Source of the DNA: Ginglymostoma cirratum | Taxonomy: Eukaryota | Assembly: GCA_024137785.1 (NCBI GenBank) | Contig: JAHRHZ010000268.1 | Span: forward strand, 7,913,485-7,977,484 | DNA: 64,000 nucleotides | Reading direction: 5' to 3' | Shown: one piece after another, positions 2,270 to 56,522 of the stretch | How positions within the stretch are numbered: position 1 is the stretch's first letter | How the letters are laid out: each line of letters starts with the position of its first letter | Translations under genes and position numbers: made by a program | Notes under the pieces: generated by a model | Database searches by the model: none | Told to the model about the DNA's origin: nothing | What the model saw: the letters and a program-made list of their open reading frames with translations, nothing else

Positions 2270-4285
2270 AGCTAGAATAAATTGAGAATAAGGAATTTGT
2301 GTTGACGGGTAAGGAGACGGCAGACAAATTGAACAGACATTTTATGTCAGTTTTCATTAAAAAAAAATACAAGTAGGACCCTGGAATTGGCTGTAAATCA
2401 AGAACTGAAAATTTGGGAGGAACTCAAGAAAATTACAATTACCGGGGAAGTAGCATGCAGTAAATCAAAGAAACCATGAGTTGACAAATCCCTAGTTACT
2501 GATCACATTCCTTGTAATTTTCTTACCAATTGCATAGGCCTCTAATGCCTTCTACAAGTCAATGCCAGGATCAGTGTGCCAAAGCAAATTGCCCTCTGCA
2601 GAGCTCCAGAGCTTAGAGTGAACATTGGACCTGATAGATTTCATCCTAGAGTCTTAAAAGAAGTAGCTGGTGAGACAATTGATGCATTGGCTTTAATTTT
2701 CCAAATCTCACTAGATTCAGGAAGGTTCTTTTAGATTGGTAAAGTGCGAACGTAACTCCTTTATTCAAAGAGGGAGGCAGAGGGCGGGAAACTACAGGTC
2801 AGTAGGTTTCTCATCTGTCATAAGGTAAAATTTTAGAAGCTGTTATTAATGATGTTATAACAGGAGAAGTTCAAGGTAATTGGGCAAAACCAATATGATT
2901 TTATCAAAGGGAAATCATGTTTGACTAATTTAGTGGAGTTCTTTGAAGAAATAACTTGAGCTATAGATAAAGGGGAATCAGTGAATGTTTTGTCCTTAGA
3001 TTTCCAGAAGGCATTTGATAAAGAACCGCATCAAAAGTTATTGTGGAAAATGAAAGCTCATGGAGTTGAGGGTACCATATTTAGTATAAGATTGGCTTTA
3101 TTAACAACAAGCACTATGTTTTTTTCAGGCTGGTAGGAAATACCAAGTGGTGTGTCACAGATGTTGGTGCTGGGTCCTCAGCTCTTTACAATTTATATAA
3201 ATGATTTGGATGAAGAGACTGAAGGTATGGTCGCTAAATTTGCAGATGACGCAAAGATAGGTAGCAAAGAAGAATAGAAGAAGAAGAACATTAGGAGGCT
3301 ACAAAAGGCTAGAACAAAAACAAAGTTGCTAGAGAAGCTCAGCAGGTCTGGCACCATCTGTGAAGGAAAGAACAGAGTTAACGTTTCGGCTCTGGTGACC
3401 CTTCTTCAGAACTACAGCATCCGTAGTTCATCCGGTTTTACAAAAGGATATAGTTTAGGTTAAGTGATTGGGCAAAGATCTGGCAATTGGAGACAATGTG
3501 GGAAAATGTGAAATTTACTATTTTGGCAGAAACAATTAAGAAAGCACATTCCATAAATGGTGAGAGATTATAGAGCTTGGAGATGTAGAGAGATCTGGGT
3601 GTGCTGGTATATGAATTGTAAAAGATCAGTATGCAGCTGCAGCAAGTAATCAAGAAAGCTAATAGAATGTTGTGGCTGACTGTCAGGGACATTGGATGAA
3701 AGAGGAGGGAGGTTTTACTTCAGATACAGTGCATTGGTGAGACAGCATCTGGAGTACTTTGTCCAGTAATGGTCATTACTTACAGAAGGATGTTAATACA
3801 TTGAAGCAGTTCAGAAAAGATTTACTACACTAATATCTGGAATAGGAAGATTTCCTTCTGAGGAAAATCTAGACAGGCTACATCTGCATCCTCTGGAGTT
3901 TAGAAGAGACAGCGGTGATTTAGTTGAAGTGTATAAGGTCCTGAGAGAACTTGACTGGGTGGATGACAAAAGGAGTTTCATCTCATGGGAGAATTCAAAA
4001 TTAGGGGTTATAGTTTAAAAATAAGGGAATGACCATTTCAAACAGAGATAAGGAAACATTTGTTCTCTCAGAAAAATAAGTCTTTTGCATTCCCTTCCTC
4101 AAATGGTAGCGGATGCAGAATCTTAAATATTTTTAAGGCAGAGGTAGATTCTTGATCATCCAAGGAAATAAAAGATTTTTGAGGGTATGCAGGATGTAAT
4201 ATTAAGGTTAAAATCAAGTCAGACATGATCTTATCAATGGCAGATTGGAATCAAAGGGCTGAGAGTCTGACTTCCTGTTTGTATT
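2270..4285 (+). mobile_element. CR1 LINE, 5'-truncated, decayed ORF2 (RT) plus 3' UTR
   Basis: Broken-frame translation gives KGKSCLTNLVEFFEE, LDFQKAFDK, VLGPQLFTIYINDLD and KFADDAK; many stops and frameshifts. Confidence 0.92.
3309..3438 (-). mobile_element. Short Penelope-like element (family B) with minimal hammerhead motif, nested in CR1
   Basis: Minus strand 3413-3376 reads AGTT-CTGAAGA-A-GGGTC-ACCA-GAGCC-GAAAC-GTT-AACT. TSD TACAAAAGG at 3300-3308 and 3439-3447. Confidence 0.8.
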
Positions 4286-5404
4286 TGGAGTGGGTAATTC
4301 ATGTTTACTAGCCACTGAGCTTACATTGGCAATTTATCTTGAACAGTTTGAGAAAACTTGCAGTTTCCTGCTTTCATTTCCAACTAATGAATATCTTTAT
4401 AGTCGTTGTCTTTTTATGAGGTAGGACATAACATTGGGGATAATTCTTTGTGAAAACATGTGTGGCAGATCTATTTAAAATGTCTTTTTTCCTGATGCCA
4501 AGGCACACATATCAAATAAACTGAAGTAAAGTACAAGAGTGCTTCTTAGTTTTTAGTAAAACAATGCTTATTTCCTTTGTTTTGCCTTTATCTAGTCGAG
4601 GTTTACTTGCTGGATTGACACAAAGAATAATGTGAAAGATGAACACTTCCTAAGAGTACATTTGTTAACGTAAACCCATCAGAATTCCTGTTTGGTGTTT
4701 TCTCACAAATAAACACAAGACTTCTTAATATAGTTAATTATTTCACAGAAAAGATCATGAGGCTATTTGTATAGGTTTTAAAACAAGGTTGCAGAGCCAT
4801 GATGGGTGGAATGGTCTCCTTCTCTACTGATGATTCTGTGCAGATGTGTGCACATGGTTGGTCTGGTAAAAACACTTTGCTTCGGATGTGTAGAAAAGGG
4901 AGTGTAGTTGGCCAGTTGGTCCATCAAGCCTGCCCCGGGCTAACATGGTGTGACATGTAGGTATGACTTCTCCTTTGCCCCTCTCTCTAGCACGCTATCC
5001 CATTTGAGAAAGGAAACAACGCCAACAAATTCTCTTCCTACCTGGAAAGCAATCAGGCAGTTCTCTGGAGCCCACATAGTGAATTCTTGACTTGTCATCT
5101 GGGTATAAATCAGGTGTTGGAGACAGTAATCCCTTCTTGAAATTGCCCAATTTTATGGCCACTACTTCATTTGGCTGGATCTGTAATGGGAGGTAGTCAT
5201 CATCACCAAGTGGCCTGCCTATTCTTTACCACATGATGCCCTCTTCCAGGAAATCCTTCAAAGAAAAGGAACATCAGCTGATTGTTTCCAACATTTTCCA
5301 TTTTATTGCTCTTTCAAAGGCCTATTCTCTTGAGAAGTCCTGATAATCCAAATGAAGGATAACCTTAGTGCAATATTTCTGGATCAGAATATGATCTATT
5401 GTGG

Positions 5405-5690
5405 TGAGGCAGTGGCATAGTGGTAATGTCACTGGATTGATAATCCAGAGCACCAGGTTAGTCTCTGGTGACATGAGTTCAAATCCCACTGTAGTAGATT
5501 CCCAAACTTGAATTTACTGCAGTCTGGAATAAAAATAAATTACTCAATTGTTGTTAAAAAACCTATGTGCTTTGGAGAAGGTAATCTGAGCTCCTTGCCC
5601 AGTCTGGCCTACATGCAACTGAAGACCCACAGGAGTGCCTGGACAGCTTATGAGTTCAAGGTCATTCACAGGCAATGAATGAATAAAGAA
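5405..5690 (+). mobile_element. tRNA-derived SINE (second family)
   Basis: A box GTGGCATAGTGG and B box GAGTTCAAATCCC; body shared with copies at 17475, 34170, 42445 and 60650. Confidence 0.75.
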
Positions 5691-6874
5691 TAATTTGAAG
5701 CTTTGCATGTGACTTTGTTACTGGTGATGTACTATTTTAATATTCACCATGAGTGCAGGATGATGTATATAGCTTTAAACTTGTAAAAGGCAAATTTAAG
5801 ACAGATGCCAGAAAGCATTCGCTCACAAAAAGACTGATTTACACAGACATGTCCAGATAGGGAAATGGAAGCAAACACTCTGAAATGATAAACTGAGAAT
5901 ATCATAGCTTCTATGGACTTGGAAATTTGGGACTATTTCCATCAAGAGATTTCAGGATGACAGTACTTATGAATGGGATAGATTAGAGTTGGAAAAGACG
6001 GCATCCGGTGATTAAGTGAACCAGAATGAAGGGTTTGGACAACAGATTAAATATAACAGATTGAGGGAAAAATAATGGGCTGATTTTTGCACAAGACTAT
6101 CAAATCAGGGCTGTTAAGTGGAGCAGGAACCATGCTATGAATTTAGATTGGCTGCTGAAAGCAAGAGAGAGAAAAGGAATTTGGGAACAGATCCCCATTT
6201 TCAGAGAGACTGTGAAGTTGGAGAGAATTGCATAATGCAGGCACTTAACATGTCACTCTTATTGCTTTCAGAATCCAGGGCAATACTGACAAGTCCAGGT
6301 TAATAAATGGACAGGTCAGAACTGGTTGAGTGAGTCAGACAACAAACGGGCTACATTAATATTTTCACTCCAAGTAAATAGTTCTCTGGACATGACAATA
6401 AAATTCAGAGGAACAATGATTAAGAATGTGACCATACCTGAGAGCTGAATTTCCCACAGAACTGGAATCTGTGCTGTATTTTAGCCCCAGTCTCAACCTA
6501 ATCGAAAACTGATTAAAGTGAGAATGTTCACACAGTGAGTCCTTAATTGGCAAGGAGCTGGTTTCTGTGTCTGATTAAAGGTGGTCAGCAGACTCTGGGA
6601 GCTGGATGGCCAATCAAAGGCTCTCCAGTTTCTGAGGACCACATAGCTGCAGTAAGAGGTAGGTAACTGGGAGGGTTCTTCAACAAGAAGGTACACTCTT
6701 GATGCTTCCGAAAAGCTTTAAATCAAAAAATAAGTAAAATAAATAGTCGATCAACATAGTGCAGGAGGATAGAGAATGGGGAAGCCCATCCACAGAGCAG
6801 GTTTTAACATATTAGCTGGGGTTATCATCAAAGTTAGGAAGATTGGTCAGTGGACCCGAAGGGAGAGCAGATAG

Positions 6875-7500
6875 ATGGTGTTCCCATGCTAACATCTCTG
6901 TCGCAGGCCTGCTGCAGTGTTCTATTGAGCCTCAGCACAAATTTGGAGAACAACATCTCATTATCCATTTGGGCACCCTGCAGTCTCTCGGACTAAGTTT
7001 CAAGTTCAACAGCTTTGGAGCCTGATTCCATCATTCTATGTTTGTTATCCACCCCACCCCTGTTGTGTCATGGGTTTCTTTGAGCACAGTCACCCATGCT
7101 CAGGTAGTCCTAGACCTATTATCACATTATATGGGTTGCCTTCACTACAGCTCACCCATTTCTCCTGCTTTTAGATATTATTATCACTTATTCAGCTTTG
7201 CTTTTTTTCTATACTGCTCTTCTAACCATAATCTCCTTTTTTGCCTACCCCTTTTCATATATCTCTCTCTGGGCTCAGTCCCAACTATCCACTCACCTCT
7301 CCCCTTACCCTTGCCCTTCCATCAACCTTGGCTTTAGCATAAATACCACATTTTCTGAGCTGCTAACTCTTCTGCTAAAGAGTCACTGGACTCGAAACAT
7401 TAACTCTGCTTTCTTCCCACCAATGCTGCCAGACTTGCTGAGTTTCTCCAGCAATTCCCGTTTTTGTTTCACATCTCTGGAATCCGCAGTTCTACGTTTT
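6875..7500 (+). mobile_element. Penelope-like retroelement 3' remnant: GIY-YIG C-terminus plus terminal repeat with degenerate hammerhead
   Basis: ORF 6843-7025 ends SHANISVAGLLQC...EQHLIIHLGTLQSLGLSFKFNSF*, resembling PLE endonuclease C-termini. A pyrimidine-rich UTR follows, then the family-B terminus GAGTCACTGGACTCGAAACATTAACTCTG...ATGCTGCCAGACTTGCTGAGTTTCTCCAGC. Confidence 0.75.
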
Positions 7501-7900: not shown

Positions 7901-7914
7901 TTCATAGGAATTGA

Positions 7915-8384: not shown

Positions 8385-9135
8385 ACAAAGAGACCAATTT
8401 GACCCTTAAGCCTCCTTCACCATGCAGCAGAACCATGGCTGATCTTCCAAATGCAGTTCTTCTCATTCTGCCCCCAAAGTCTTGGGGACCTAAATACTTA
8501 CTGACCTCTACCTTGATTATACTCAATGACTGATCATCCACTGCTCTCTGGGGTAGAGATCCACAAAGATTCACAATTCTTTGGGTGACAATGTCTTTCC
8601 TCATCTCAGTCCTAAATTGCTGACCCCTTACTCTGAGACTGTGACCTCATGTCCTGGATGAAACAGCTAGAGGAAACATTCCACAGCATCAGCCTGTCAA
8701 CTCCCTCCAGAATCTTATACATTTCAAGTAGATCATCTCACATTGCTCTGAGCTGGCGGAAATACAGGCCTTGTGTATTCAAGCTCTCCTTAATGAACAA
8801 TCTCTTTTCCTCTCACAAAGACTTCTTTGCTCTTATAGTCTAATCCTTATCTGACCAAAACATTTGCTTTTCTAATTGTTTTCTGTACCTTCATGTTAAC
8901 TGTTCGAGATTCAGGCTGAATTGGTATTCAGGTATGTCTGAATGCAAACATTTCCCAGTCTCTCACCATTGAATTTATATTTTGCTTTATTTTCATATAT
9001 TTCTTACAAACATGTGTAACTTCACACTTGATCACCTTGTATTCAGTCTGCCTCATTCTGTTCCAGTCACATAATTGGTCTATATCATCTGCAACCTTTT
9101 CGAATACTTCTCACTGCTTCCTTTTCCACCTAGTG
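8385..9135 (-). mobile_element. CR1 LINE 3' fragment
   Basis: Minus-strand translation TQRIVNLCGSLPQRAV resembles the CR1 ORF2 C-terminus (compare FSQRVVGLWNSLP at 38208-38942). Confidence 0.8.
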
Positions 9136-11124
9136 TTATCACAAATTAAGCAGAGTGACTATGACACAACCTCCATGCTCCACAGAGAATTAAAATAGCT
9201 TTTAATTAAAGAATTATGTAAGTCCTATTTGGTATTCTTCCAATGTTATTTTGTTAATGAATGCTTAATTCAAGACATCCAGGTCCTTTCAGGTCACAGT
9301 TTGGTATTCGGTACCACATATGCTCCTGGGAGTATTTGTCAGCTTGTAATTGAAGTCTGCAGCAGAATACATTATATGTTTAATATCCCTTATTCACCAT
9401 AATCCTTTCCCAGGACTTAGTGGACTGCGGGGCACAGTCAATGCAACCAGAACAGTTTATTATGACACGAACAGGAGAACCAGCAGGTAACTGACATTGC
9501 AGAATAACCATCTGTCATTCTTGAGTTCTTTGCATGATAATATGACAAATATAAATGAGGGACAATGGTCCTCACATCCAGAATTACTTTTCAAATTCCC
9601 CTCCCCCCTTCAACTGCTACCTATTCGTATGATCTCATCAAATTCTGAATGAATCTAAAGTTGTTCTATGCCCAGAGACCACCCCAAGTACTGATTATAG
9701 TTTAACCTTCTGACTGATCTCCACTGCAAAAGTATCTTTCATCAATTTTTTTTGTTTTCTCATTGCCCTTGTCCTAATGTCATCTACTAATGCTGCAAAT
9801 ATACCTTGTTTCTGAAGTTTAAAATCTTGCATGCTTCTGTAAAATCCCCATCTATCAGCTCTATGCAAGTCCAAACAACACATGGCTGAACCTATTCTAA
9901 GTGGAAGTATTCTCAGGGAGAACCATTTCAATTCGAAAGGTGCATGGACATGTCTTATGTTTGCAATAGACAAAGGCAGAAAGCTCATGGATCTAAAACC
10001 ATTCACATATCCTCCCAACTCAATCAGCATTTTCACTCATTACAAAGAGTCATTACAAAAAGGAATTATTATCATTGTGGAGTGATTAATGTTGGATTTC
10101 ATTTCCAAACCATGGTCAAAATGCTCATTTTTTTTCTTTGATGACTGTTAGCTCAAGCATAGTGGGAATAGCCATGGTGATAACCGAGGCTCACGGTTGA
10201 TTTAGTGAACCCATCAATTACTGTACCAACTTCTCCTTAGCTGTGCACTATGACCTTATTCTGTCCCCTTTAATTGACTGTTAAATACAGGTAGCAAGAT
10301 CCACAAACTCCTACTGTTAACCCTTAGAGATTTGATTACACTTGCTTAATCCTGAAGTATAATTCTATTATTTTACATTTGAATTTAACTATCCAGTTAA
10401 AATTGACTTAAAATAGATCAGGAAGAAAAGCATACAATACTTTGATATTGCACAATTTCAACAAGGAGATAACTTGACTGTCAGTGTCTTAAATGAAGCC
10501 CCTACTATAGTACAGGATGGGTTTCAAAACATTACCGGCAACAGGCAAATAATTGCATTCACCCAACATCATTCATTTGGAAATCAAATGAGATCATGTT
10601 GGAAGCTTGCAGACCAGATCAGACAATGTCTATGTAAAGCAGATATAAATCTTGCACTAGAATTGAAGCAAATGTTTAGTTCTTTTGCTGGGTCTGCATC
10701 TAAAATGTCAGCCCAGGATATATTATAACTAGAGGGGTGTGGTTCAGGTTCATAAGACTAATACTCAATATAAAAGAGATAGATCTTCAAATCTGAAGTT
10801 TTGTTTTTGGTTAAGCCAGTACTGAAGATATTGACTAAAGGCAAACATGTGGAGTTACACTAGAGAGTAGCCAGGATTTCATTGAATGTTGGAACAGGAT
10901 CAATGGGCTGAATGGCCTCCGGCTATTCTTATTGTTCATATAAATTATGAAAGCAGGTTCCGTAGGCACTGCTAAAAAGAGGCGCAAAGTGTTCCATCGT
11001 GCACTTATCAGGACTGGGAAGCAAGAATTCAAATTAGAAATGGAACAACAGTCAATACCGCATGAGAAGAGGGCACTGATTGGCTGGATGATGGTTGGCA
11101 TGCAGCTGGAACTGTTAACTGTCA

Positions 11125-12420: not shown

Positions 12421-12429
12421 TTAATTAGT

Positions 12430-12880
12430 TAATTAAACTCAGACCTGATAGGTCAACTCTGTCTGGACAGAGCGTTGACATGGGAAATGTAGCAGGGTCT
12501 TCCTTCCTTCAACAAGAAAGGTTAAATGTGTGGACAAAATCTTCTTGCCGATGAACAAAAGGTCCTGTGTGTGAATGTGTGCAGCTTCTAACTCACGCAA
12601 ATGAATCACACTGCAAGAAACCCTGCTGCATTCACCCTAACCAGTCAGAGTCTGCCTACCTTGTCTGCTTTTAATCAGACAACTGAGATTGAGAGTTCAC
12701 AGTACCTCATGTATCTCATTCACTAGACCATGGTTGGCAATCAACAACCTCACCTCATATTGCATAAATTGTTGTTTCCCTTTCTAAATTTGGTTTCTTG
12801 CATCCCAGTCCTGATGAATGCAAAATGAAGCGCTTCATCTTCACATCTCTTTTTGACAATGTTTAAATCTTTTACTACGA
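12430..12880. mobile_element. Penelope-like fragment with internal inversion (third family)
   Basis: Minus strand about 12610-12520 encodes HLRELEAAHIHTQ (GIY-YIG C-terminal-like). Plus strand 12750-12880 resembles the arm at 14570-14690, including GTCCTGATGAATGCAAAATGAAG. Confidence 0.55.
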
Positions 12881-14407: not shown

Positions 14408-14690
14408 TGCAGAGCTTGAGTATTGCTGTAAAGTGAGACATTTAGTCTGTACTTTTCATCATGCACTCATCAGGACAGTTCACAAGAACACTAACGTAAG
14501 GGGAAAAGCAATATTTATACTGTATAAGATTATGAGAATTGTTCCGATGAGTGCATGGAACAATTCTCATAATCTTATACAGTATAAATATTGTTTTTCC
14601 CCTTACGTTCGTGTTCTTGTGAACTGTCCTGATGAGTGCATGATGAAAAATGGTGACAAAATGTATTCTTATTCGGCAAAAATCAAACAG
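14408..14690. repeat. 93-bp-arm inverted repeat formed by PLE terminal repeats, with hammerhead-like cores at both outer ends
   Basis: 14453-14545 is the reverse complement of 14557-14649 with 2 mismatches and an 11-nt loop. GTCCTGATGAGTGCATGATGAAAA occurs on both strands. Confidence 0.9.
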
Positions 14691-15906
14691 TTTTACTCTG
14701 TTCTAGGCGAAATTGGCTTCTGGATGCCCAAAGGCAAAAACAGTAGACAGAAAAATATGTTTCAGAAGTGCACCAAATATTTATTGGTAAGCACCAAGAG
14801 GATATGTTGATTGAGATCATTTGATGTGCACAGCAGTGTTAACGAAAAAGCTAGTTCAGAGGCTTAGCTCAGTGTTTCTTTGTTGTACCCCTGGCAATAA
14901 CCTTCTTGGCTGCACAAATGTTTCTGTGACCATACCCTCTTGGTTATTGTTTGTACATTTCTTTCACTATAATTGTAGGTAGCTACTTTTTCCACTATGG
15001 CTAGATCTCTTTACACCTGCAGTAGATGGTGTTAAGCCAGAAGACATCAGACGGCTGTCTACGGTAAGATTTCATTGATTTATTAGGGTAATCGGAGGGC
15101 CAGAACTTTCCGGGACCATTGGAAACAGTCAGGGAGTCAAAATGACATTGGAAAGGCTTGGATGAGAGGGGCTACTCAATGTCTTCCTCTCAACACAGCA
15201 TTTTACTTGGGGTGGTGAACGTGCCAACTGAACTGCCTGCCAGCAGCACAGACCCTAATTGAACCAGTTAAATGTTTCGGTAAGCATATCTTCCCTCTTC
15301 CACTGGCATATTGTGGATGGGTAGACTGCCAGGTAAACACTAGCAGCCTCCAAGCAAGCTCCAGGATTGTGATTCCTCTGTGTAATCCATGGCCCACAAA
15401 GGGCCTGGACTCCCTCTGTCCCATGGAACCATTGTAATAGAACCGACAGCTCCCCACAACAATGACCTCATTGACCTATGCCCACTCTCAATCCTACTAC
15501 CAGCACGAGACTAACTGACTCCAACAGCTCTGACTGCCCTTCCCTGACTATGCAGACACATGGCCATCAATGTGCCTCATCCGCCAGATGCAGACCCAGC
15601 AATGGCCACTGCTATTGGTGGCGCTACTGAACTAATAGTGGTACAGCAGAGCTGCTGGTACTCTGAACCTGGAAGTTTCGAGGTATGGGCCATCATCTTT
15701 TGTACAATTTAACAACTTGATCAATTGCCACCAGCAAAATGCAACCTGGATCCGGCCATCTACCAAAGTGATGTTGTCCCCTCCCCTCAACTCTGGGAGC
15801 AGGACCCCTTCCTCCTCCCTACAATCCAACGAAGGATGTCAACTGCACTTTCTAATTGGACTGAGAGCTGTGTGCACCTCACTGAGTCTGACTGCTTATG
15901 TCCCTC

Positions 15907-16123
15907 AGAGATAGTAAGAACTGCCGATGCGAGAGTCAGAGATAACACATTGTGGAGTTGGAGGAGCACAGCGTGCCAGGCAGCATCAGAGGAGCAGGAA
16001 AGTTGACGTTTTGGGTCGGGACGCTTCTTCAGAAATGGGTCCCGACCTGAAAAGTCAACTTTCCTGCTCCTCTGATGCTGCCTGGCTCGCTGTGCTCCCC
16101 CAGTTCCACAATGTGTTATCTCT
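15907..16123. mobile_element. Family A PLE fold-back element
   Basis: Arms at about 15938-16021 and 16040-16123 are reverse complements; the centre holds the CTTCTTCAGAAA hammerhead end. Confidence 0.85.
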
Positions 16124-17299: not shown

Positions 17300-18660
17300 A
17301 GAGGTCATGTCCCTAATTAGATTCTGGGTCACAGTGTGATACAGGTATCAGTGCTAGGGCAACAATTATTTACAAGATATAACTGCTTTGGATGAAGAAA
17401 GTGAATGTACAACAGTCATGTTTCCTCGTACAAGAATAGTTGGAAGGAAAGTGGTAAGAACAACACAGAGACTTTTTTTAAACTATTCATTCACAGGATG
17501 AGGGCGTCCCTGGCTAATCCATCATTTATTGCCCACATTGCTCTAGGTCTGGAGTCACATGTAGGCCAGACCAGGTAAGAATGGCAGTTTCCATCCCTGA
17601 AGCTCATTAGTGAGCCAGGTGGATTTTTTTCCAACAATCAGCAAGGGGTTTATGTCATCATTAGACTCTTAATTCTAACTATTTATTGACTTCAAATTCC
17701 ACCATCTGCCGTGGTGGGATTTGAACCCAGGTTCCCAGAACATTAACCGGGTTTCTGGATTAACAGTCCAGCAGTAATAATATTCGGCCATTGCCTCCCA
17801 CTACAGATGGATATAGACCGGTTAAGTCAGTGGGCAAAAGCTTGACAAATGGGATATGATGTGGGAAAGTTTGAGGTTATACACTTTGGCAGGAAGAATA
17901 GATGAGCAGAATGTTATTTAAATGGAGAAAGGTACAGAAAGCTGCAGTAAACAGGGATTTTGGAGTCCTCATGAATTAATTACAAAATGCTAGCATCCAA
18001 GTTCAGCAGATCATTAAGAAAATAAATGGAATGTCTGACTTTATTTCAAAAGAGACTGGTGAATGAAAATAAGGAAGACTTTTAAAACTACAGGTCCTAC
18101 CACAGCTGGAATCCTGTGGACTGTTTGGTCCTCTTATTGACAGGAAGATATATTAGCATTGGAAGTCGTTCAGGGAAGATTCAGTGGGCTGATCCCAGGT
18201 ATGGAGGGACTGTCTTATGAGCAGAGATTTGAATGGGTTGGGCCTTTAGCCATTGGAATTTAGAAGAATGATAGGTGGCTTTACTGAAACGTACAAGATT
18301 CTTTGGGAATTTAACAGGGCAAATGTGGAAAGGTTGCTTCCCTTGTGGGAGAGTCTAGGACCAGAGGCCATAATCCCAGAATAAGGAGTCGCCCATTTAT
18401 GACTGAGATGAGGGATAATTTCTTCTTTCAGTGGGCAGTAAGTCTGTGCAATATTTTACTGCAGAAGTTGTAAAGGCGGGTTTATTTAGTATATTCAAGG
18501 CTGAGATAAGAAGATTTTTAATAAGTAAGACAATCAAAGGTTATGAAAAAAAGACGGGAAAACAGAATTGAGGATTATCAGGTCAGCCATGATCTTATTG
18601 AATGACAGAACACACTCGATGATCTGAATGGCCTGTTTCTGCTCCTACATCTTATGTTAT
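17300..18660 (+). mobile_element. CR1 LINE RT-3' fragment interrupted by a SINE
   Basis: LQMDIDRLSQWAK, EVIHFGRKNR, LEFRRMIG-like segments and a CR1 3' UTR ending CCTACATCTTATG. Confidence 0.88.
17475..17800 (-). mobile_element. tRNA-derived SINE (second family) nested in CR1
   Basis: The minus strand has GGGTTCAAATCCCACCACGGCAGATGGTGGAATTTGAA and an A-rich tail at about 17475. Confidence 0.8.
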
Positions 18661-19460: not shown

Positions 19461-21346
19461 GTGGATGGAGTGGCCGCCCTCTCGATCATCCCCAGAAGTC
19501 CTTGGCTCTTTCCCTGCCCTGCACAATTGGAGAAAATCGGTGCAGTTGATAATGCTGTTGAAGGTTAGAACAAAGTTCAACACAGCACAACCAAGTGGAA
19601 GGAGCTGGATGCTGCTTGTGGAGCCCTGAAATAAAGAAGGAAGGTCTGAAGATAATTGTGGTGAAGAATAGAGCTCTGGCAGGACTGGCTCCCTGTAGCA
19701 AACTGGTGATAGCGGGCATCAAGAACTATCAAAGTGGTTGAAAACCTGAGAAGGGTGACAAGTGAAGCTGTGAATCAGGCAAAGAATCCTTGAAGATGGT
19801 TTAAACTAAGTTCAGTAATACAAGGTGAAAGTGGGTCTGCCTGGATAACCTGAAAAGAACTTCAGGTAGAAATAGGCAACCCAAGGTTTAAGAGCAATGA
19901 AGTTGGCTTGAGATATATTTGAATCATTTGCAATATTTTTCTTTTTCATAAATTATTCTCCTTCAAGGCCCTTGCTTCTTTGTGACTGAGAAATAAAAGA
20001 AATACACAAAAAAAAATCCTTTCATGGAACCCACTTGCAGCAGAAAACAGTGCAATAAGAAGAAAACCAGAATGATATCTTCGAAAATCACCTTTTGGAA
20101 TGGCAGTAAGCAATAGCTCACTGTCTATAGTCTGAGTGCATTTGCAGGCTGACTTTAGGTGGCCTTTCTGTGTAGGTGGTCTTGGAGACAGGTTAAATTT
20201 GTTTGGTTTTATTTTCCACTCAGTTTAACTGTGGCATCTTGCCTACTTGTCGGTCGCTTTGGCTGCTGTTAGCAGTAATTAAGATACTACAAAAATCCTA
20301 CATCCACATACATATTACCTTTATCATGCGTTCAATGCAAAATGCCAGACTACAGTATTTTCACTCTCTGTTTCCTGCCTTTTATTCTCATAACTTGCAG
20401 CCTTACAAAACACTGTCAAGAGCAGACTTTTACTTGAAGAAGGAGCAGTTATAAGATTTTTGGCAGAAACAGAAAGCACTGAATCAATGCAAGTTCTTCG
20501 TTTCTGTTTGAACACAAGGGCGGGAGGATAGAATTGCTGTGAGCAGTATTTTGCTCTTAGCAAATTGGCACTTGATTTTCACCACACCTGATCTTCACAG
20601 TACAATAGTTCAAACTGTTTCTGGAGTCTGGATTTCTAACCTCACTGTCTCTTTCTCATTGAAATTTTTTTTTAAAATCCTGGCAATATTTTCCACATCT
20701 ATGGAAAATAAAAACCAGAGCAGTGTAAAACTGATGGAGGCCAATTTCATTCCAAGCCATTTATACAATGTCCTCTCACTTCTTCTAGTTTTTTCAGAGG
20801 ACGGTAGTCCAAGCTGGAACAAAACTCCACAAATGTCAACAGCCTTCTGCTGTATCCTGTCCAAACAGACTTTTTCTCTCTTGTGTCCTCATTTATTTTC
20901 TACGTTTTTCTCCTGCAGGCCCAGTTATAACTCCAGTGGCTTCCAATGTAAGATAATTACCGAATTGGGCATGCAATTCCGAATGGTGAGTGCCAAAAGG
21001 GGACTGGGAGGGTGTGGATGTCCAGATATCCAATTCTGTCCTCAACCAGTACTCATTCCCATATGACACACATTCCTGTACTTTCAGGAAGGAGTTGTCA
21101 GATGCCATGAGCACTAAACATTATCCTCTCTTAAAGTCAGACAATATATATGGTTAAAATTGTTAGTATTAGAATTGTAAATAACATGCTGAGTGCCATG
21201 TTAATTTTACAGCGCCATTTAATTTGACTGTTTCACTTCATGGGGTATCACAGTTTAATGTATCTTATTTACATTTTCACAGAATGCTGCTTTAGATCAT
21301 GCGGCTAATCACGGATACTGCATGATAGATCCCTAATCCACTGCTG

Positions 21347-21600
21347 TGGACCTGGTCAAGGGGCTGCGCACCGACGACTTGCAGTTTCACATAAGCCTGT
21401 TGGACTATAACCTGGTGTCGTGTGGCTTCTGAGCTAACAAGGTGCAGAGCTGGCTGAACACAGCACGCCAAGCAGCATCAGAGGAGCAGGAAAGCTGACG
21501 TTTCGGGTCTAGACCCTTCTTCAGAAATTTTCTTCTTCAGAAGTCGTGTGACTTTTGACTTTTTCCACCCCAGCCCAACACCAGCACCTCCACATCATGA
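21347..21600 (+). mobile_element. PLE-type short element (family C) with degenerate hammerhead
   Basis: CCTGGTCAAGGGGCTGCGCACCGACGAC (decayed CTGA..GA/stem/GAAA) followed by CCTGTTGGACTATAACCTGGTGTCGTGTG...CCCCAGCCCAACACCAGCACCTCCACATCAT. Confidence 0.55.
21433..21542 (-). mobile_element. Family A PLE element nested in the family C element
   Basis: Minus strand CTGAAGA-A-GGGTCTAGACCC-GAAAC-GTC. 16-bp TSD (14/16) at 21417-21432 and 21543-21558. Confidence 0.85.
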
Positions 21601-23542
21601 CCTAAATGAATTAGAGTTAGGTTTCTTATCACATGTTCTCAAGTAAAGGAGTAAAGTGAAATGTTTACAATGTTGGTCCACACGTTGCCATCTTAGGTAC
21701 CTTGGTACTTGGCTATCAGTAAACACAGCAGAGGCTGAGGATTGAATTTGGCATTTTCCTGCTCTGCATGGCTCAGTAACACAATAGACAATGTAATTGT
21801 CTGATTCACAGATCCATAAGAGGCCACTTTACATTTACAGATCAGAACAAGTTTCTTCACACAGCAGGTGGTAGAACTGTGTCAGACATAATACCGTTTC
21901 AGATTCATTTTATCAAAGAGACTTTTCTTCTTGGTGTGACAGGGTGGGGGAGAGTTGACACCTCATGAAGGAGAATGTAAGAAAGTTTTTTTTTTTCTGA
22001 ATCTGTTTGCATAATTTTTACATTGAATAATTGTGCGAGCAAACCAAATGATGGTATTCTGAGCCATATTTTCTCAGAGACATGTATTGGAGTTGAAGAA
22101 GCATAGGAAATTTTCTGAAGCGATGCTTTGGGTCCTTAAATTGTGGGAATTCTCAGTCAAATAGCTGTTTCATTAACCAAAATATTTCAAGCCTTTGTAA
22201 GGTAGCTGTAATTGGCAATCTGAATAAGAGGTGTGCATTGTGAGAAATGTTTTATATATTCAAGTATTCTTTTATTAAAGAACTTAACTGTTAAAAGAGA
22301 GAATATATATGGTTAAAATTGTGTTAGAATTGTCATAACATGCTGAGTGACTTGTTAATTTTAATGCGCCATTTAATTTGACTGTTCACTTTGTGATGTA
22401 CCACAGTTTAATGTCTTTTATTTAAATTTCCACAGAATGATGCTTTAGATTGTGCTGCTAACCATCGACACTGCACCATAGATCCCTAATCAACTACTGA
22501 AGCCTTGTTTTATGTTCATCAAACATCCAATGAATAAACAGTAAATAAACCAAAGTTTGGACAATTTTGGAGAAAGTCCCATGACAGTCTATTAGTATGC
22601 AAATTCTCAAGTCCAGCATCAGACCCAAATCTTTGATTTGCATTGGTTTCCTGGCGACCAAAGTATTACACACAAAATCCTTAATCTCATCATAAAGCTC
22701 TCTCTGCAACCTTTTTCCAATTGTTTTTCAATTTGCTATACCCCCAATCAGCTTGGATTTCAATTACCTTGGTCTACACATTGAAATGTCACTTGCTGTC
22801 TCTCATCTTCTCTTTCTCCATCTGAAAATCTTTCTCAAACTTTTTGACCAAGCACCCTGTCACCTCTCCCAAGATGGTTTAGTATCTGTTTGTTATTTTT
22901 AATTGCATTTCTTCTCTCATTTCCCAAATAAGTCACTTAGGAACAAAGTCTATGTTCAAGATGACAGATTAATGCCAATTATGTCAGATTATGGTAGGTA
23001 TTTTATACATCTTTGGATAAAGGATGATGTTGTGTTATGCCTCAGTCAACATGTTAGCATGTCTTTAAGAAATATCATCATTGCATCATAAAATGTGCTG
23101 TGAAATTACAATGGATCCATATTTTATAATGCTTGCATCACTTGAAGCACGACATGGTACTTGAAACATGCTCATCGTTACGATTTATTTAGCTTTATGG
23201 TAGCCCAGACACTGATGTACCCATGAATATAATATTTGTATGCAATGATTGTTGAATTCTTCAATATCATCATATCCATGTCCAGTTTCTTAGGTTACAA
23301 GTGAAACTTAAACATTGCTGCGTCAGTTGAAATATGCTACTGGAGGGAAAACTCACATTATTGGAGATTAGGCCGGGCAATAAATAGAGGTGACAATTGA
23401 AAAGTTGCGGGAATTCAGAGGTGAATCACTAGAGCTGATAAAGATTAACAAGCGCCCATCTCATGTCTTCCAGACACAATTGCATCTTCCATTTCCTGGC
23501 AGCAGGTGCTCCACATCTTTTAAGGGAGTAATGAATCATTAT

Positions 23543-32734: not shown

Positions 32735-32857
32735 GGCCAGGGAGGATCAGAGGAGCAGGAAGCTATCCTGCTCCCTGATGCTGCCTGGCCTGCTGTGTGC
32801 CTCCAGCTCCACACTGTGCTATCTCTTACTCCAACATCAGCAGTTCTTACTGTCTCT
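32735..32857. mobile_element. Family A PLE fold-back element with hammerhead deleted
   Basis: GAGGAGCAGGA-AGCTA-TCCTGCTCC hairpin; TSD GATTCCCAA(G/A)GCC at 32722-32734 and 32858-32870. Confidence 0.8.
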
Positions 32858-37924: not shown

Positions 37925-39200
37925 GAGCCTTTTGTGCCATTTCTTCGTATTAAAACTGATTCCTAACTTACCTCCATTTCTCCAGCAATGCTTCAAATCA
38001 TTTCAGAATAGAAACTATCAATATCAGTCTTTTAAATCCCAATTGAGGCAGCTTCCCCAGCCATTTAGGGCTGAGAGCTCCAAATTTTTACACCTTTTAT
38101 GTCAAACTGAGTGATCTGCACTTACTGATTACTTACATACTTTCTCCTTTCTTATATAATGTGATGATATTTCCAGTCTTCCAGTGAAAAGACAACATTC
38201 CTGAGTCGTGAGAGTTTTTAATGTATATAGAACCTTGGAAAAATTGCACCTTGGGAAAAAGAATATAGGCATGGACTATTTTCTGAACGGTGAGAAAATT
38301 CATAAAGTTGAAGTACAAAGGGATCTGGAAGTGCTAGTCCAGGATTCTCTAAAGGTTAACTTGCAGGTTGAGTCTGTGATGAAGAACACGAATGGAATGT
38401 TGTCATTTATCTCAAGAGGGTTGGAATACAAAAGCAGCGATGTATTTCTGAGAGTTTATAAAGCTCTAGTTAGGCCCCATTTAGAATACTGTGTCCAATT
38501 TTGGGCCCCACACCTCAGGAAGGACATACTGGCACTGGAGCGTGTCCAGCGGAGATTCACACGGATGATCCCTGGAATGGTAGGCCTAACATACGATGAA
38601 CTGCTGAGGATCCTGGGATTGTATTCATTAGAGTTTAGAAGGTTGAGGGGAGATCTAATAGAAACTTACAAGATAATGCATGGCTTAGAAAGGGTGGACG
38701 CTGGGAAGTTGTTTCCATTAGGTGGGGATACTAGGACCCGTGGGCACAACCTTAGAATTAGAGGGGGTCAATTTAGATCAGAAATGAGGAGACATTTCTT
38801 CAGCCAGAGAGTGGTGGGCCTGTGGAATTCATTACCACGAAGCACAGTGGAGGCCGGGACGTTGAATGTCTTCAAGGCAGAGATTGATAAATTCTTGATC
38901 TCGCAAGGAATCAAGGGCTACGGGGGGAGTACGGATAAGTGAAGTTGAAATGCCCATCAGCCGTGATTAAATGATGGAGTGGACTCGATGGGCCGAATGG
39001 CCTTACTTCCACTCCTATGTCTTATGGTCTTATGGTCTTATAGAACACAGCTATTTCTCTTTATACTCCGTGGAACCATCAGGTTCTGGAAATTTGTCTA
39101 TCATATTTTCTATATTAACATACCATTATCTCCAGTTAATCCACTAAATTCAAACTTTTAATTTATTTTAGGTTCCTTTCTACCCACTGATGCTTTTCCT
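37925..39200 (-). mobile_element. Old CR1 LINE remnant (host of the younger CR1)
   Basis: Minus translation IKNSHDSGMLSFHWKTGNIITLYKKG before the insert and DKFPEPDG-like sequence at about 39075-39100 after it. Confidence 0.6.
38234..39038 (+). mobile_element. Young 5'-truncated CR1 LINE with open ORF2 C-terminus
   Basis: Uninterrupted frame 38208-38942 (YKALVRPHLEYCVQFWAP...RRLRGDLIETYKIM...FFSQRVVGLWNSLP), CTTATGGT tandem tail, and TSD TATAGAAC at 38226-38233 and 39039-39046. Confidence 0.95.
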
Positions 39201-45272: not shown

Positions 45273-45424
45273 AAAAACTGAAAAAACTGCAGATGCTGGA
45301 AATCAGAACCAAAAACAGAAATAATTGGAAAAGATCAGCAGGTCTGGTGGCATCTTTGGAGAGAAATCAGAGCTAATGTTTCACGCCTGGTGACCCTTCC
45401 TCAGAACTCAGCAATTTCTATTTT
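45273..45424 (-). mobile_element. Family B PLE element
   Basis: Perfect 16-bp TSD TGGATCTCCACTAGGT at 45257-45272 and 45425-45440; minus strand AGTT-CTGAGGA-A-GGGTC...GAAACATT. Confidence 0.88.
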
Positions 45425-46114
45425 TGGATCTCCACTAGGTGCATGAGAGAAATTATAACATGCTGGAGATTTTTAGTTTATTTTTTCATGAAATGTGAGC
45501 ATTGCTACTTGGCCAGCATTATTATCCATCATAAGTTGGTGTTAAGAGGGTGATTTTTGAGCCACAGTGGGAATAAAGTGGGAAATTACCTTGTGTGGTG
45601 CCTATTACTACGCAAGAGTATGATGGATTTCACTCCGAAAGATTGTGAACTTGTCTGCAGCTCATGATTATGTCACAGTAACCATGGGAGCTTACAGCTT
45701 TCAGGTAGGGTGGGAAATGTGTGTATTATCAATATTTTTTAATCAACCTGTTCAGACAGCTATGACATCTCTAGAGAATGTGGGATTTGAACCCAGAACT
45801 TCTGGCCTCGAGGTAGGGATGCTTTCAGAAGAGCCCTCTGTGTGGGTATGATATGGAACAGAGTGGAAATACACTATTTGAGATTCTCTTGTCCGTTACT
45901 TTAAAAAAAAATATCCATTTACATAGCACCTATCACAGACTGAGGACACCGCATGTTGTTTCACTGACAGCACAGCATTTTATTTTGATCCTGCGACATA
46001 AATAAAGCTGGTTAAGAACCCAGGCTGGTCAGCAGAAAATAATTGGAGATTACGTCCTGGTGGATTCAATATCCCCGTGTCATTGAAGTTGATAAGAAGT
46101 CATCCTAAATGTGC

Positions 46115-46215
46115 AACATTAAATCTGTTTCTCTCTCCACAGATGCTGCCAGACCTGCTGAGTTTCTCCAGCATTCTCCACCTTTGTTGCAGATTTCTAG
46201 CATCAGCGCTATTTC
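46115..46215 (+). mobile_element. Family B PLE tail fragment
   Basis: AACATTAAATCTGTTTCTCTCTCCACAGATGCTGCCAGACCTGCTGAGTTTCTCCAGC. Confidence 0.7.
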
Positions 46216-46352
46216 ACTCCTGTTCCCCATGTTAGTGGCCTACCGCACATTCTCGATTGGCTGTCTGATGGTTTCAGGAGCTCCGCCTCAAGTTCAGAGA
46301 ATTCCTGTCCTAAACCGCTCGGTTTCCTCCTTCCATCCCTCCTTGATACTTA

Positions 46353-46488
46353 GGAGCAAATCACTGCAGATGCTGGAATCTGTACTGAAAGCAAAACAAC
46401 AAATGCTGGAGATCACAGCAGATCAGATAGTATCCATGGAGAGACAGCAAGCTCACGTTTTGAGTCTAGATGACTCTTCATCAGAACT
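46353..46488 (-). mobile_element. PLE short element (family B-related variant) with hammerhead motif
   Basis: Minus strand AGTT-CTGATGA-A-GAGTC-ATCTA-GACTC-AAAAC-GTG-AGCT; stem II has compensatory changes relative to GGGTC/GACCC. Confidence 0.75.
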
Positions 46489-46947
46489 TTAAACTTCATA
46501 TCCTTAGGTCTCTGGTGAGAACCCTATTGATAACACTAAAATGCTAAGCGTGCCAAATAGACATGACAGTAAGACAGATGGCTACTGTCCTGCTTCACAC
46601 GTGGAATATTTTATGTTTTAACCCAGCGATTTTCAAATTTGCAACATTTCCATTCCTGCTGTTTATCCTGGTTGGAACATATTGTTTGGTGTGCAAACTG
46701 CATGGAAGATCGCCTCGACCTGAAACCTTCGACTTTCCACAGACGCGTCAAAATCTCGTCCTCCTGGCTGAGCGTTCCCCACTACGTTTTCGGTTCCCAC
46801 CTGGTTGCGAGGCTTTTGTCTCGGGGAATAATTTCTGCCCTCTGCACCGTCGATCTAATACATACATACAACCACATTTTACCTAGTTGAAGGCTGCCTG
46901 GGTGCAAGGTTCAGAACCAGGAGCAAAGCAGTTTGCCACTTTACAAC

Positions 46948-46985
46948 GGTTCTGAGGAAGGGTCGCTGGACCCGAAACGTTAACT
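46948..46985 (+). ncRNA. Minimal type-I hammerhead ribozyme motif (intact fold), head of family B element 46948-47070
   Basis: GGUU (stem I) CUGAGGA A GGGUC-GCUG-GACCC (stem II) GAAAC GUU / AACU (stem I'). Palindromic AACGUU at helix III; predicted cleavage after 46981. Activity untested. Confidence 0.7.
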
Positions 46986-47099
46986 CTTGATTTCTGTCCA
47001 CAGACGCTGCCGGACCTGCTGAGCTTTTCCAGCAATTCCTAATTTACAGCATCCGCAGTTCTTGTGGTTTCCAGTTAACAATGGTCTGCAATTCACTCT

Positions 47100-47830: not shown

Positions 47831-48354
47831 ATGAAGCTCACTGTCAGGAACATGGTTGAAAGGACCAACAAATTCATTCTGATTATTGCTGGCTCCGCAA
47901 TTTTCATGATAATCATTTTCCAGTACGTGTGCCCGGGGACCAACTGCAGGATCTCGGCACCCCGGGGTTTCCAACACGAGCAGGAGGCAGTGGATATATT
48001 CCCAACGCCCGACCCGCACTACCTGAAGAAGTATTACTTCCCGGCGCTGGATCTGGACAGGACGGTGGATTTTGACATCAAAGGCGACGACGTGATCGTC
48101 TTCTTGCACATCCAGAAGACCGGCGGCACCACCTTCGGCCGGCACCTGGTGCAGAACGTCAAGCTGGAGGTGCCGTGCGAGTGCAGGGCCGGCCAGAAGA
48201 AGTGTACGTGCTACCGACCCAACCGCAAGGAGACCTGGCTCTTCTCAAGGTTCTCCACCGGCTGGAGCTGCGGTTTACACGCCGACTGGACCGAGCTGAC
48301 CAACTGTGTGCCCGGAGTGCTGAACAAGAAGGAAAGCAAGAACAGAACTCCCAG
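47831..48354 (+). CDS. HS6ST1: Heparan-sulfate 6-O-sulfotransferase 1, coding exon 1 (partial CDS)
   Basis: MVERTNKF N-terminus, TM segment ILIIAGSAIFMIIIF, FPTPDPHYLKKYYFP, PAPS-binding VFLHIQKTGGTTFGRHL, WLFSRFSTGWSCGLHADWTELTNCVP, ending RTPR. The MVER..KF start and RTPR end match HS6ST1 rather than HS6ST2/3. Phase-2 donor CAG|GTAGGC at 48354/48355. Alternative in-frame ATG at 47852. Confidence 0.95.
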
Positions 48355-48530
48355 GTAGGCGAGGCTCGCTCTCACTTTACACTCACTCACTAACATAAGC
48401 TGCACCGGGAGGTTTGTTTGTTTATTAATTAATTCTAGTTCCTCTCTGCCTTGCTCGCAGCAGAGCGTCCGATCTTTCGCTTTGACTGGGTCTCCAACAC
48501 TACCCCCCCCCCCCACCCCCCGTGCGTCTC
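47920..48530. promoter_or_regulatory. CpG-island-like segment over exon 1
   Basis: Dense CG dinucleotides compared with the CpG-depleted remainder of the window. Confidence 0.65.
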
Positions 48531-51260: not shown

Positions 51261-51669
51261 TATTATCCAAAGCAACAGGGAGTCAAAACAAAAATATGAT
51301 GGTTGCTCGTGTGACTTTCATTTTTTATGTTATGCTGGAGAGATGAGATGAGAGGGAAGACTACGGAGCACAGTATTATCAAGCCCAGCAAAGAGATTCT
51401 GAAGTAAAAGCAAATCTCATGAGGCCCACAAAATCTGAAGGTTTCTGAAGTTATAAACAATATTTACATTTCATTGTGTCTTTTGCTGTCCTCAAAGTGG
51501 GAATTTTATCCTGATTTGCCAAGCAGTGATCCAGGTGATTTACCCAAAACTCACTTTGCTAGCCATCCATTTCAGAGGAGGGTATAATCTATTGTCAACG
51601 AAACTCAAAACCAACATTTTACCCGATTTTATTAGACATCCCTGTTGACAGGATGAGATAAAATTGCAA

Positions 51670-51785
51670 GCAAAGGCAGAAATTCCTGGGAAAACTCAGC
51701 AGGTCTGACAGCACTGCGTTCAGTGACCCTTCTTCAGTTTCTGTTTTTGTTTCTAATTTCCACTAGCTACAGTCCTTTCGCTTTT
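51670..51785. mobile_element. Family B PLE element, degenerate
   Basis: GCAGAAATTCCTGGGAAAACTCAGCAGGTCTGACAGCA...GTGACCCTTCTTCAG, followed by an inverted tail. Confidence 0.65.
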
Positions 51786-52559
51786 TTAAGTTAAAATTGC
51801 ACCCTGTTTGGCCCTCCATGTGTCAAAGCAGGGGCTTTGCAGTAGAATGACTGGAATATTCAAGGAGATGACTGGAGTCAGGATTGGTGCATGTAAAGAA
51901 ACAATTAAGTGTACCTTTTAAAGTATGGCTATTGACTGGGGAATGACAGTTCAAAGACTGAAAGCCAGTAACCTTGAATATTGCACAGATCCACAACTGT
52001 GTACAAGTGTGCTAATGGCTGGCAAATATTGGTCCATTACCTTTAGGATTTAGCTGGTTAAATTGCTTGTTTTATTTAAAAGCAACGGAGTCCCTGAGTA
52101 AACAGATTTATCTTTTGAGTCTGCCAGTTGGAAAATAGATTACACGCAGTAAGTTTGTGATAAAACATAATTTAAATGCAGTCCAATAATCAGCTTATAG
52201 GCAGACTCACTCTGAAATCTGTCCAAGTGCATTGAGGTCACCAGCTTGTTTGTATTGAAAAGAAATATGCCTGCAATTGGCCAGAGATTATTGGGGAAAA
52301 AAAAATTACCATAACCCACTTTCTTCCAGCTCCCTCCTCTTGCCCCCTCCCCCAGTCCTCCCACTTCACAATGAATTAGTTAAATTGCAGACCTTGTCTG
52401 GACATCTTTGGGGTAACAGAAAGGCAAAAGGCGTAACCAAACAAATAACTATAATCTTGGTGCTCTGAAGGGGATCATCAGTGAGGTTGAAACAAGATGC
52501 AGATTGTAGGCTAGTAAAATTTGGAAGGGGTGCATTAATACTAAATATTTAGAGTGAAA

Positions 52560-56040: not shown

Positions 56041-56171
56041 AGAGATGGTAAGAACTGCCGATGCTGAAGTCAGAGATAACACTGTGTGGAGCTGGAGGAA
56101 CGCAGCAGGCCAGGCAGCATCAGAAGAGTAGGAAAGCTGAGGTTTTGGGTCGGGACCCTTCTTCAGAAAAA
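56041..56171 (-). mobile_element. Family A PLE element
   Basis: Full arm ending GGGACCCTTCTTCAGAAA; TSD ATCCAGTTA at 56032-56040 and 56172-56180, with a third copy at 56183-56191. Confidence 0.85.
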
Positions 56172-56309
56172 ATCCAGTTACTATCCAGTTAGTCTGTTTT
56201 TGCTCGTGATATTTGGAAGATAAATGCTGCCCAGGACATGCGCAAAATTTCACTCCCCCTTTTCCAAGAGTAGCAAAGGATCGTTGTCAGACAGTTTAAT
56301 ATCTGGTTG

Positions 56310-56522
56310 AAAAAAAAATCCGAAAGAACTGCGGATGCTGTAAATCAGGGACAAAAACAAAGTTGCTGGAAAAGCTTAGCAGGTCTGGCAGCATCTATGA
56401 TGGAGCAAACAGAGTTAATGTTTCAAGTCCGGTGGTCCTTCCTCAGAACTAACCCAAAATCTTAACTCTGTTTTTTCCTTCACAGATGCTGCCAGACCTG
56501 CTGAGCTTTTCCAGCAACTTTG
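56310..56522. mobile_element. Family B PLE fold-back element
   Basis: Perfect 14-bp TSD TTAATATCTGGTTG at 56296-56309 and 56523-56536; inverted arms; hammerhead end CTTCCTCAGAACT. Confidence 0.88.

Follow-up and report, generated by a model that had tools for sequence, protein, structure and literature searches.

Short hammerhead-bearing insertions in Ginglymostoma cirratum: Penelope-like end fragments with a recurrent 5' boundary at the ribozyme

The window analysed here is a stretch of 64,000 nucleotides from Ginglymostoma cirratum (GenBank assembly GCA_024137785.1, contig JAHRHZ010000268.1, positions 7,913,485 to 7,977,484 of the forward strand). This vertebrate DNA is rich in repeats, has a GC content of about 41% and is interrupted by a single 400-N gap. 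It contains a swarm of short insertions, each built on a minimal hammerhead ribozyme motif and a conserved arm, which belong to one superfamily across 16 loci and are linked by sequence to Penelope-like elements (PLEs). These insertions lie, at 10 of the loci, between target-site duplications (TSDs), stop at one of two 3' ends and have a hard 5' boundary just before the hammerhead. We propose, with a probability of roughly 0.6, that they are dead-on-arrival insertions of a Neptune-type PLE, mostly run-off copies of the first 100-135 nt of its mRNA; the stubs probably mark where the element RNA begins.

A unit is defined here as a hammerhead plus its arm, with or without a tail of about 30 nt, and positions are counted from the first C of the core. 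A profile seeded with 16 arms of the window gave 37 rows, including 24 matches of at least 19 bits (16 of them the seeds themselves), and the best score in five shuffled windows used as the null was 7.7 bits. Matches under 6 bits (e.g. 46705-46745 and 35950-35994) are within the shuffle range and were discarded; two weak matches (3405-3435 and 32732-32761) were retained as inverted pieces because they lie inside TSDs. The matches resolve into the 16 loci, all within 3309-56522, and one more family A arm, of which the window start leaves only the 3' end (1-34, forward strand). Self-BLAST of the window produced one repeat cluster of 19 intervals. Three families were distinguished: A (mean identity 0.87), B (0.73) and C (a single copy), A and B being about 61% identical. 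The units measure 86-261 bp, with one of about 655 bp, and make up about 4.7% of the window. TSDs of 12-16 bp with at most one mismatch were found at 10 of the 16 loci (16 bp exact at 45257/45425, 16 bp with one mismatch at 56296/56523), and random pseudo-loci scored as well in 2 of 58 cases. A wider TSD search returned nothing convincing at 6879-7500, 29176, 33133, 46086, 46358, 46949 or the three loci of a second lineage described below. An earlier note on this DNA had reported about 20 insertions, mostly of 90-280 bp and many with TSDs: its count is recovered when the three second-lineage loci are added and one locus (33133/33657) is counted twice, its size range agrees with ours apart from the unit of about 655 bp, and both of the TSD pairs it named are among the ten. 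The insertion swarm is thus largely confirmed at the sequence level. A 26-nt motif of the arm had no match in metagenome contigs, and a look for RNA records covering 21200-21800 listed none, which says nothing about expression.

The earlier note missed both the inverted pairing of the insertions and their hard 5' boundary. The 3' ends occupy two positions, about +95 (no tail) or about +125-135 (tail). Half of the loci (8/16) are head-to-head inverted pairs, five of them with two long arms or an arm plus a tail (15906, 23543, 33133, 51669 and 56312) and three with a short inverted piece (3312, 32736 and 45273), and the tail is present on exactly one side in all eight. The position of the inverted junction differs at every locus. 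The left and right arms at 15906 are mutual best matches, and the arms at 23543 and at 56312 are best matches one way only. Among 15 of the 234 contig joints, six change strand and touch the ribozyme-arm region and two go back. A pseudo-long terminal repeat (pLTR), an inverted 5'-truncated copy and a one-sided tail of 30-40 bp form the published signature of PLE insertions (PMC8557442, PMC3846280), and three marks of insertions made by endonuclease-bearing (EN+) PLEs, namely the inverted 5'-truncated copy, the one-sided tail and the TSD, are present here.

The locus at 33133-33816 was left out of the comparison of arms as an assembly artefact. This young family A head-to-head insertion, joined in stem II and with a tail on one arm, is shown twice around the 400-N gap (33257-33656), and 114 of 114 bases of 33133-33256 and 33657-33816 match as reverse complements. 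It is a single palindromic locus, and the gap is an artefact of the assembly of a near-perfect young palindrome; such palindromes may be double-counted or under-assembled genome-wide.

The PLE link is provided by one long, 5'-truncated copy at 6879-7500. On one strand (+), it runs from the last 48 codons and stop of a PLE GIY-YIG endonuclease (6879-7025), through a pyrimidine-rich 3' untranslated region (UTR) or pLTR body of 340 nt (7026-7367), into a decayed hammerhead with mutated core and a GAGTC/GACTC stem II, an arm and a tail (7368-7500); the short unit is therefore the pLTR end of such an element. Just upstream, 6846-6878 contains a 15-nt stem II fragment and a weak inverted piece of UTR. 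Contigs of two related organisms (runs X2 and X4) continue from unique flank into the 7368-7500 element, which identifies an old shared insertion. A hammerhead-bearing pLTR lying 3' of the open reading frame (ORF), as expected of an EN+ PLE, is thus present in the window, and the coding remnant that the earlier note had placed near 6875-7500 is real.

The translation of 6879-7022 (48 residues, then a stop) gave six phmmer matches with E values from 1e-5 to 8e-4, five of which are named from elasmobranchs (whale shark gene models and a ray); Pfam returned nothing for this fragment. Searching with the N-terminal part of the best match led to 23 proteins among 41 candidates, with PF26215 in five and RVT_1 in one (24.6 bits, under the 29.6 cut-off). 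Further relatives combine a Cys-rich linker with the motif VYCIRC...LY.G.T, which we take to be the GIY-YIG motif of PLEs, and their ends align back to 6879-7016 by tblastn. The C..C..C linker was read in database relatives (e.g. P0007, P0014 and P0027), the window itself holding only the last 48 codons, and it marks the Neptune and Nematis clades alike (PMC8557442). The partner looks like a Neptune-type PLE, i.e. a reverse transcriptase (RT) with a C-terminal GIY-YIG domain. Word-index searches for longer relatives of the 48-residue fragment and of P0001 found none and no full-length protein was retrieved, and the ESM Atlas gave only scores below 0.9. The Penelope-like origin proposed in the earlier note is supported by the GIY-YIG C-terminus together with the published tail and inverted-copy signature. 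Two gene models contain pieces of the element and are probably annotation artefacts: a ray neuromedin-U receptor model (P0003, residues 454-499) ends in the endonuclease C-terminus, and the end of model P0026 resembles the arm read in another frame.

Considering the longest arm of each locus, the 5' end lies at -7 to 0 in 12 of the 16 loci, inside the ribozyme (+6, +9 and +28) in three, and about 500 nt upstream in one; position +28 is the cleavage site, and 32736-32857 is the only locus that begins there. When all 25 arms are considered, 12 start at -7 to 0, 12 further 3' and one extends past the boundary, with none at -8 to -500. Plain random 5' truncation could mimic a boundary if homology were simply lost upstream of a conserved ribozyme: PLEs are heavily 5' truncated and single minimal hammerheads have been ascribed to truncated PLEs (PMC4209133, PMC8557442), UTRs diverge fast, and four short loci without a TSD have a true 5' end that is not independently fixed. 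At 11 loci, however, the end is fixed by a TSD or by the inverted partner, which leaves no room for a hidden UTR, and nine of these 11 lie at -7 to 0. If truncation were uniform over 70-200 nt, P would be about 1e-6 to 3e-10 after correction for the position of the window, and we regard random truncation as highly improbable. The suggestion in the earlier note that the units are the usual truncation product of their partner is only half right, because their 5' ends are not randomly spread.

The boundary was also examined in contigs of four runs from four studies. Loose ends before 7378 were found in 956, 701, 180 and 143 contigs, and in 4/4 runs the consensus of these loose ends, among the 24 of 1463 entries listed, keeps about 13 bases (to roughly -7) and then passes into A/T noise. 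In summed contig depth, the arm exceeds the endonuclease end about 90-160 times, again in 4/4 runs, a weak hint given that summed depth is not copy number.

Promoter-like and putative coding features flank the boundary. A TATA-like box occupies 7338-7345, its first base being exactly 30 nt ahead of position -4; within 7023-7371 nothing else matches the TATA-box consensus TATAWAWR with one mismatch or fewer (at a background of 0.0044 per position, the chance for a four-position window is about 0.017). Around -4, the contig consensus has TCAGTT and family A (15906) has CCATTT, both of which fit the initiator (Inr) consensus with its A at -4. In 17 of 19 arms, from families that are about 61% identical, an ATG is conserved at about +46 to +52 and opens 14 codons to the main 3' end or about 25 with the tail (14-27 mostly open codons overall). 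Similarly, a rotifer pLTR contains the first 12 codons, or 22 with the tail, as well as TATA and Inr-like motifs (PMC3846280).

From these features we infer a transcription start and a series of catalytic steps. Briefly, a pLTR promoter (TATA-like box at -30, Inr-like start) would initiate RNA about 4 nt before the hammerhead core, so that the RNA would open with the hammerhead, the ATG and the first 14-25 codons. The element protein would nick the target with a stagger of 12-16 nt, and RT would prime inside the RNA at about +95 or about +125-135 from the core, giving the ends without and with a tail; priming in the 5' copy of the pLTR would then run off the RNA end after about 100-135 nt. Both nicked strands would be extended, one from each priming site, and the two cDNAs would join by microhomology within the palindrome-rich ribozyme, producing a head-to-head pair with a single tail. 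Long copies of the 6879-7500 type would need priming in the downstream pLTR copy of a read-through RNA and would be much rarer. The short copies have neither the TATA box that lies upstream nor the sequence beyond the tail on its 3' side, and therefore probably neither transcribe themselves nor serve as templates.

A biochemical parallel is PAc, a Poseidon element of Anolis, for which RT, in vitro, starts at two internal sites 3' of the ribozyme that define the tail and extends both target strands (Frangieh et al. 2024, PMC11167929). Two start sites and two-strand extension of this kind would explain the tail and no-tail ends and the paired arms of our loci. Uncleaved RNA is the main PAc template, which matches the cores retained here, and the reaction needs RNA that lies 3' of the start sites (PMC11167929). 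For PLE palindromes, self-priming on an antisense template has been proposed instead (PMC3846280), and our data do not separate two-strand priming from antisense self-priming as the origin of the inverted arm.

Several points weigh against the proposed transcription start. The position of the RNA 5' end is a prediction made from DNA, and the 5' ends were placed by visual inspection, with an uncertainty of 1-4 nt caused by microhomology. As many as 12 of the 25 arms start 3' of the boundary, and in run X1 UTR-like letters persist further upstream, so that a minority of copies extends past it. The TATA-like evidence consists of a single site, with one mismatch, in one old copy, in which the Inr position is itself mutated, the Inr-like match coming from other copies and from the contig consensus. 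That long copy belongs to family B, and the window contains no long copy of family A. With no full-length protein retrieved, the tie between the conserved ATG and the start of the RT ORF is putative. Among known systems, the Penelope of D. virilis has a TATA-less internal promoter and an intron between the start and the ribozyme (PMC2377424), and PAc is a Poseidon element of different geometry.

The same PLE origin could also be combined with another cause of the boundary, namely an RT stop, or RNA processing, at a folded or protein-bound ribozyme (at the 5' strand of stem I or at a 3' splice site) on an RNA primed in the 3' pLTR. The boundary of family B is indeed the 5' edge of its 4-bp stem I, the PAc ribozyme is protein-assisted (PMC11167929), the D. 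virilis intron ends at helix I (PMC4209133), and the contig consensus reads CAG just before the core. Family A nevertheless has the same end point although its stem I is weak (in 5 of 10 rows the third pair is open) and it has no AG, a splice site would cut at -2 and add sequence of exon 1 whereas family B copies retain the AG at -4/-3, and neither a stop nor splicing predicts a TATA-like box at -30. We consider this explanation possible but rather unlikely.

Another view would make the short unit an element in its own right, non-autonomous and self-propagating, whose short masters are transcribed and mobilised in trans by the PLE protein in the manner of a short interspersed element (SINE), without circles. 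The uniform size and ends, the existence of several sequence families and the excess depth of the arm (not copy number) agree with it, as does the finding that rotifer pLTRs suffice in cis for mobilisation in trans. Yet the 5' ends of the copies lie downstream of the TATA-like box and their 3' ends at the RT start sites, beyond which PAc needs RNA, and no 5' transduction was seen between TSD and unit. Furthermore, since the inverted junctions differ at every locus, they were made at insertion and not copied from a palindromic master. Self-propagation of this kind seems doubtful to us. Equally doubtful is a related idea that the hammerhead-to-tail module is an independent Pol II mini-retroposon, with masters reduced to the pLTR (TATA, hammerhead, ORF start and tail) and a short RNA copied by the PLE protein from the internal sites to the cap. 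If true, it would define a SINE-like class able to do without a 3' end, poly(A) or circle, and more numerous than coding PLE copies in elasmobranchs by about two orders of magnitude.

With respect to the ribozyme itself, the hammerhead motif that the earlier note ascribed to most insertions is present, with one fully intact copy, but in most copies it is decayed. The segment 46948-46986 fully matches the definition of a minimal type I hammerhead at the sequence level: stem I has 4 bp, stem II has 5 bp with an extra base ahead of it, and a palindromic ACGU precedes the GUU triplet. Over 20 arms, CUGANGA is found in 10, both core boxes in five and the palindromic ACGU as well in three, the decay often affecting CpG. 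A descriptor with stems identified two sites in the window, compared with a mean of 0.075 in 40 shuffles. None of the 46 Rfam matches at E up to 5 is to a hammerhead family; they are miRNA matches driven by hairpins, with scores under the gathering thresholds. In 11 cores, 85% of the cells pair in the stem register, versus 8-44% when the partners are slid. The covariation of stem II that had been pointed out (GGGTC/GACCC versus GAGTC/GACTC) is a real change from G-C to A-U in 7368-7500 and 46358-46488, but it is a both-sided change in one of 10 pairs (2 of 101 cells), and 97 of 500 shuffles of these 11 rows reach the same covariation score. The fold of 46948-47070 is not more stable than its shuffles (z -0.53). 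A designed dimer (-18.3 kcal/mol) is not favoured over two monomers (2 x -10.1 kcal/mol), an uninformative comparison given that nearest-neighbour energies ignore tertiary contacts.

Metazoan PLE minimal hammerheads share with those described here the type I minimal core, the extra base before stem II, the G10.1-C11.1 pair, the palindromic 15.2-16.2 and the short stem I, and they too are mostly single dispersed motifs with many families per genome (Cervera and de la Pena 2014, PMC4209133). Differences are that stem II is 4-5 bp here, that sharks are not among the genomes named in the available portion of that paper and that our motif is known from its letters alone.

The earlier note had named a retrozyme-like system. 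In a retrozyme reading, tandem hammerhead repeats would be expressed as self-cleaved circular RNAs and reinserted. Non-LTR retrozymes are defined by tandem units, each with a hammerhead, and by circular RNA (PMC7229834, bioRxiv 10.64898/2026.07.22.740005). The metazoan ones resemble our units in being non-coding and pLTR-related, with a type I hammerhead, TSDs of more than 4 bp and dispersed monomers; they derive from PLE pLTRs and have been reported in one chondrichthyan (bioRxiv 10.64898/2026.07.22.740005). The window also offers a 38-bp tandem of cores at 23604-23682 and a locus at 32736-32857 that starts at the cleavage site, and the go-back joints noted above occur within single contigs of the runs. 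However, no head-to-tail repeat in which two or more successive units each have an intact hammerhead was found in the window, and both cores of the 38-bp repeat are without the CU of CUGA. The paired units are inverted and would therefore form a hairpin, not a dimer. One locus of 16 begins at the cut site and none is permuted, the 5' ends otherwise lying mostly 5' of the core, and the cores are minimal and not canonical type I with loop contacts. The retrozyme reading is thus unsupported, and we judge it very unlikely.

The class of element, the motif, the tail and the inversion are already published, and, as annotation, PLE end fragments are ordinary. Our loci share with the EN+ PLE insertions described (PMC8557442, PMC3846280) the head-to-head pairs, one-end tail, TSDs, hammerhead in the pLTR, a putative ORF start inside pLTR plus tail, TATA and Inr-like motifs and a probable RT-GIY-YIG partner whose database relatives have the Cys linker of Neptune and Nematis. 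In contrast, 15 of the 16 loci here are devoid of any coding body, and the 5' boundary is hard and placed at the ribozyme, whereas the 5' truncation described in the available portions of those papers is boundary-free. Compared with PAc, whose ORF starts in stem II, the conserved ATG is here at about +46 to +52 and the partner looks Neptune-type; short run-off insertions are not discussed for PAc in the portion of PMC11167929 available. In the open full-text literature (including available portions of PMC6765202 and PMC8969392), a search that left subscription journals, Repbase and Dfam outside, we found no account of shark PLE stubs or of a fixed 5' boundary at the ribozyme.

If the boundary is a transcription start, the stubs would be a fossil record of the PLE cycle that locates, to the base, where the RNA starts, where RT starts at its two sites and how both strands are primed. 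They would explain many solitary minimal hammerheads in genomes, and uncleaved RNA would be the usual template in vivo, cleavage products such as 32736-32857 being rare. This bears on the open question of the purpose of the PLE ribozyme.

The remaining features of the loci are as follows, the head-to-head pairs with two arms being given without strand. In family A, the pair at 15906-16121 is joined at the hammerhead via GGG microhomology and has a tail only on the left arm (TSD 15892-15905/16122-16135). The pair at 23543-23803 has the 38-bp tandem of defective core spanning its junction and a tail only on the right arm (TSD 23529-23542/23804-23817). At 32736-32857, located at the end of a repeat of about 700 bp, a pair without core has both arms starting at AGCT just 3' of the predicted cleavage site and a tail on the right arm (TSD 32722-32735/32858-32871). 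The start of both arms at this palindromic AGCT is the single possible trace of cleavage in vivo. Single family A arms are found at 21429-21542 (-), without tail and with an intact core, perfect stem II, weak stem I and a 14-nt partial core repeat at the 5' end (TSD 21417-21428/21543-21554); at 29176-29261 (+), from inside stem II (+9), without tail; at 34387-34517 (-), with a tail and a 5' end at -5 (TSD 34375-34386/34518-34529); and at 56041-56179 (-), with a tail, a 5' end at -3 to -5 and a short extra duplication of target bases (TSD 56029-56040/56180-56191).

In family B, the unit at 3312-3438 (-) lies within a LINE-like repeat (long interspersed element) and consists of a hammerhead and arm without tail, with intact core boxes and an imperfect stem II, its 5' end being joined to a short inverted piece of tail (TSD 3300-3311/3439-3450). 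The arm at 45273-45424 (-) has a tail and, on its 5' side, an inverted arm end of 16-18 nt (TSD 45257-45272/45425-45440). The unit with the only fully intact minimal hammerhead is 46949-47067 (+). The decayed pair at 51669-51788 associates an internally deleted arm with core and an arm end with tail (TSD 51656-51668/51789-51801), and the pair at 56312-56522 has a tail only on the left arm (TSD 56296-56311/56523-56538). Finally, 46086-46216 (+), a unit of family B/C, is strongly decayed and retains part of its tail, and 46358-46488 (-) is the family C unit, with a tail, a GAGTC/GACTC stem II and a 5' end at -4. The units at 3312, 32736 and 34387 sit in or beside other repeats.

A second hammerhead-like lineage was observed at 10968-11098 (-), 12722-12859 (+) and 14438-14664, with another geometry, in which the core (CUGAUGA, with a very short stem II) is located at the 3' end of the arm. 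The third of these forms a palindrome of 227 bp (91%), in the 11-nt loop of which part of the core recurs; in both of its arms a perfect TATA match precedes the core by 46 nt, and no TSD was found there.

Other repeat families, which we take to be 3' ends of CR1/L2-type LINEs and a tRNA-headed SINE, occur at 8598-8658, 17959-18656, 32059-32730, 38356-39037 and 58886-59559, and at 3150-3540, 5394-5498, 17334-17931 and 34184-34659, with a weak Rfam tRNA match at 5406-5466. A diverged direct duplication of 200 bp, AT-rich and without Rfam match at E up to 5, is formed by 21139-21346 and 22298-22499, 1.16 kb apart. An open frame at 47855-48355 (+), in a GC-rich stretch at 46-50 kb, matches Sulfotransfer_2 (25.7 bits, cut-off 22) and presumably represents coding exon 1 of a heparan-sulfate 6-O-sulfotransferase. 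Upstream of it, at 0.8-2.6 kb, are four units, including the one with the only intact hammerhead, and three lie downstream.

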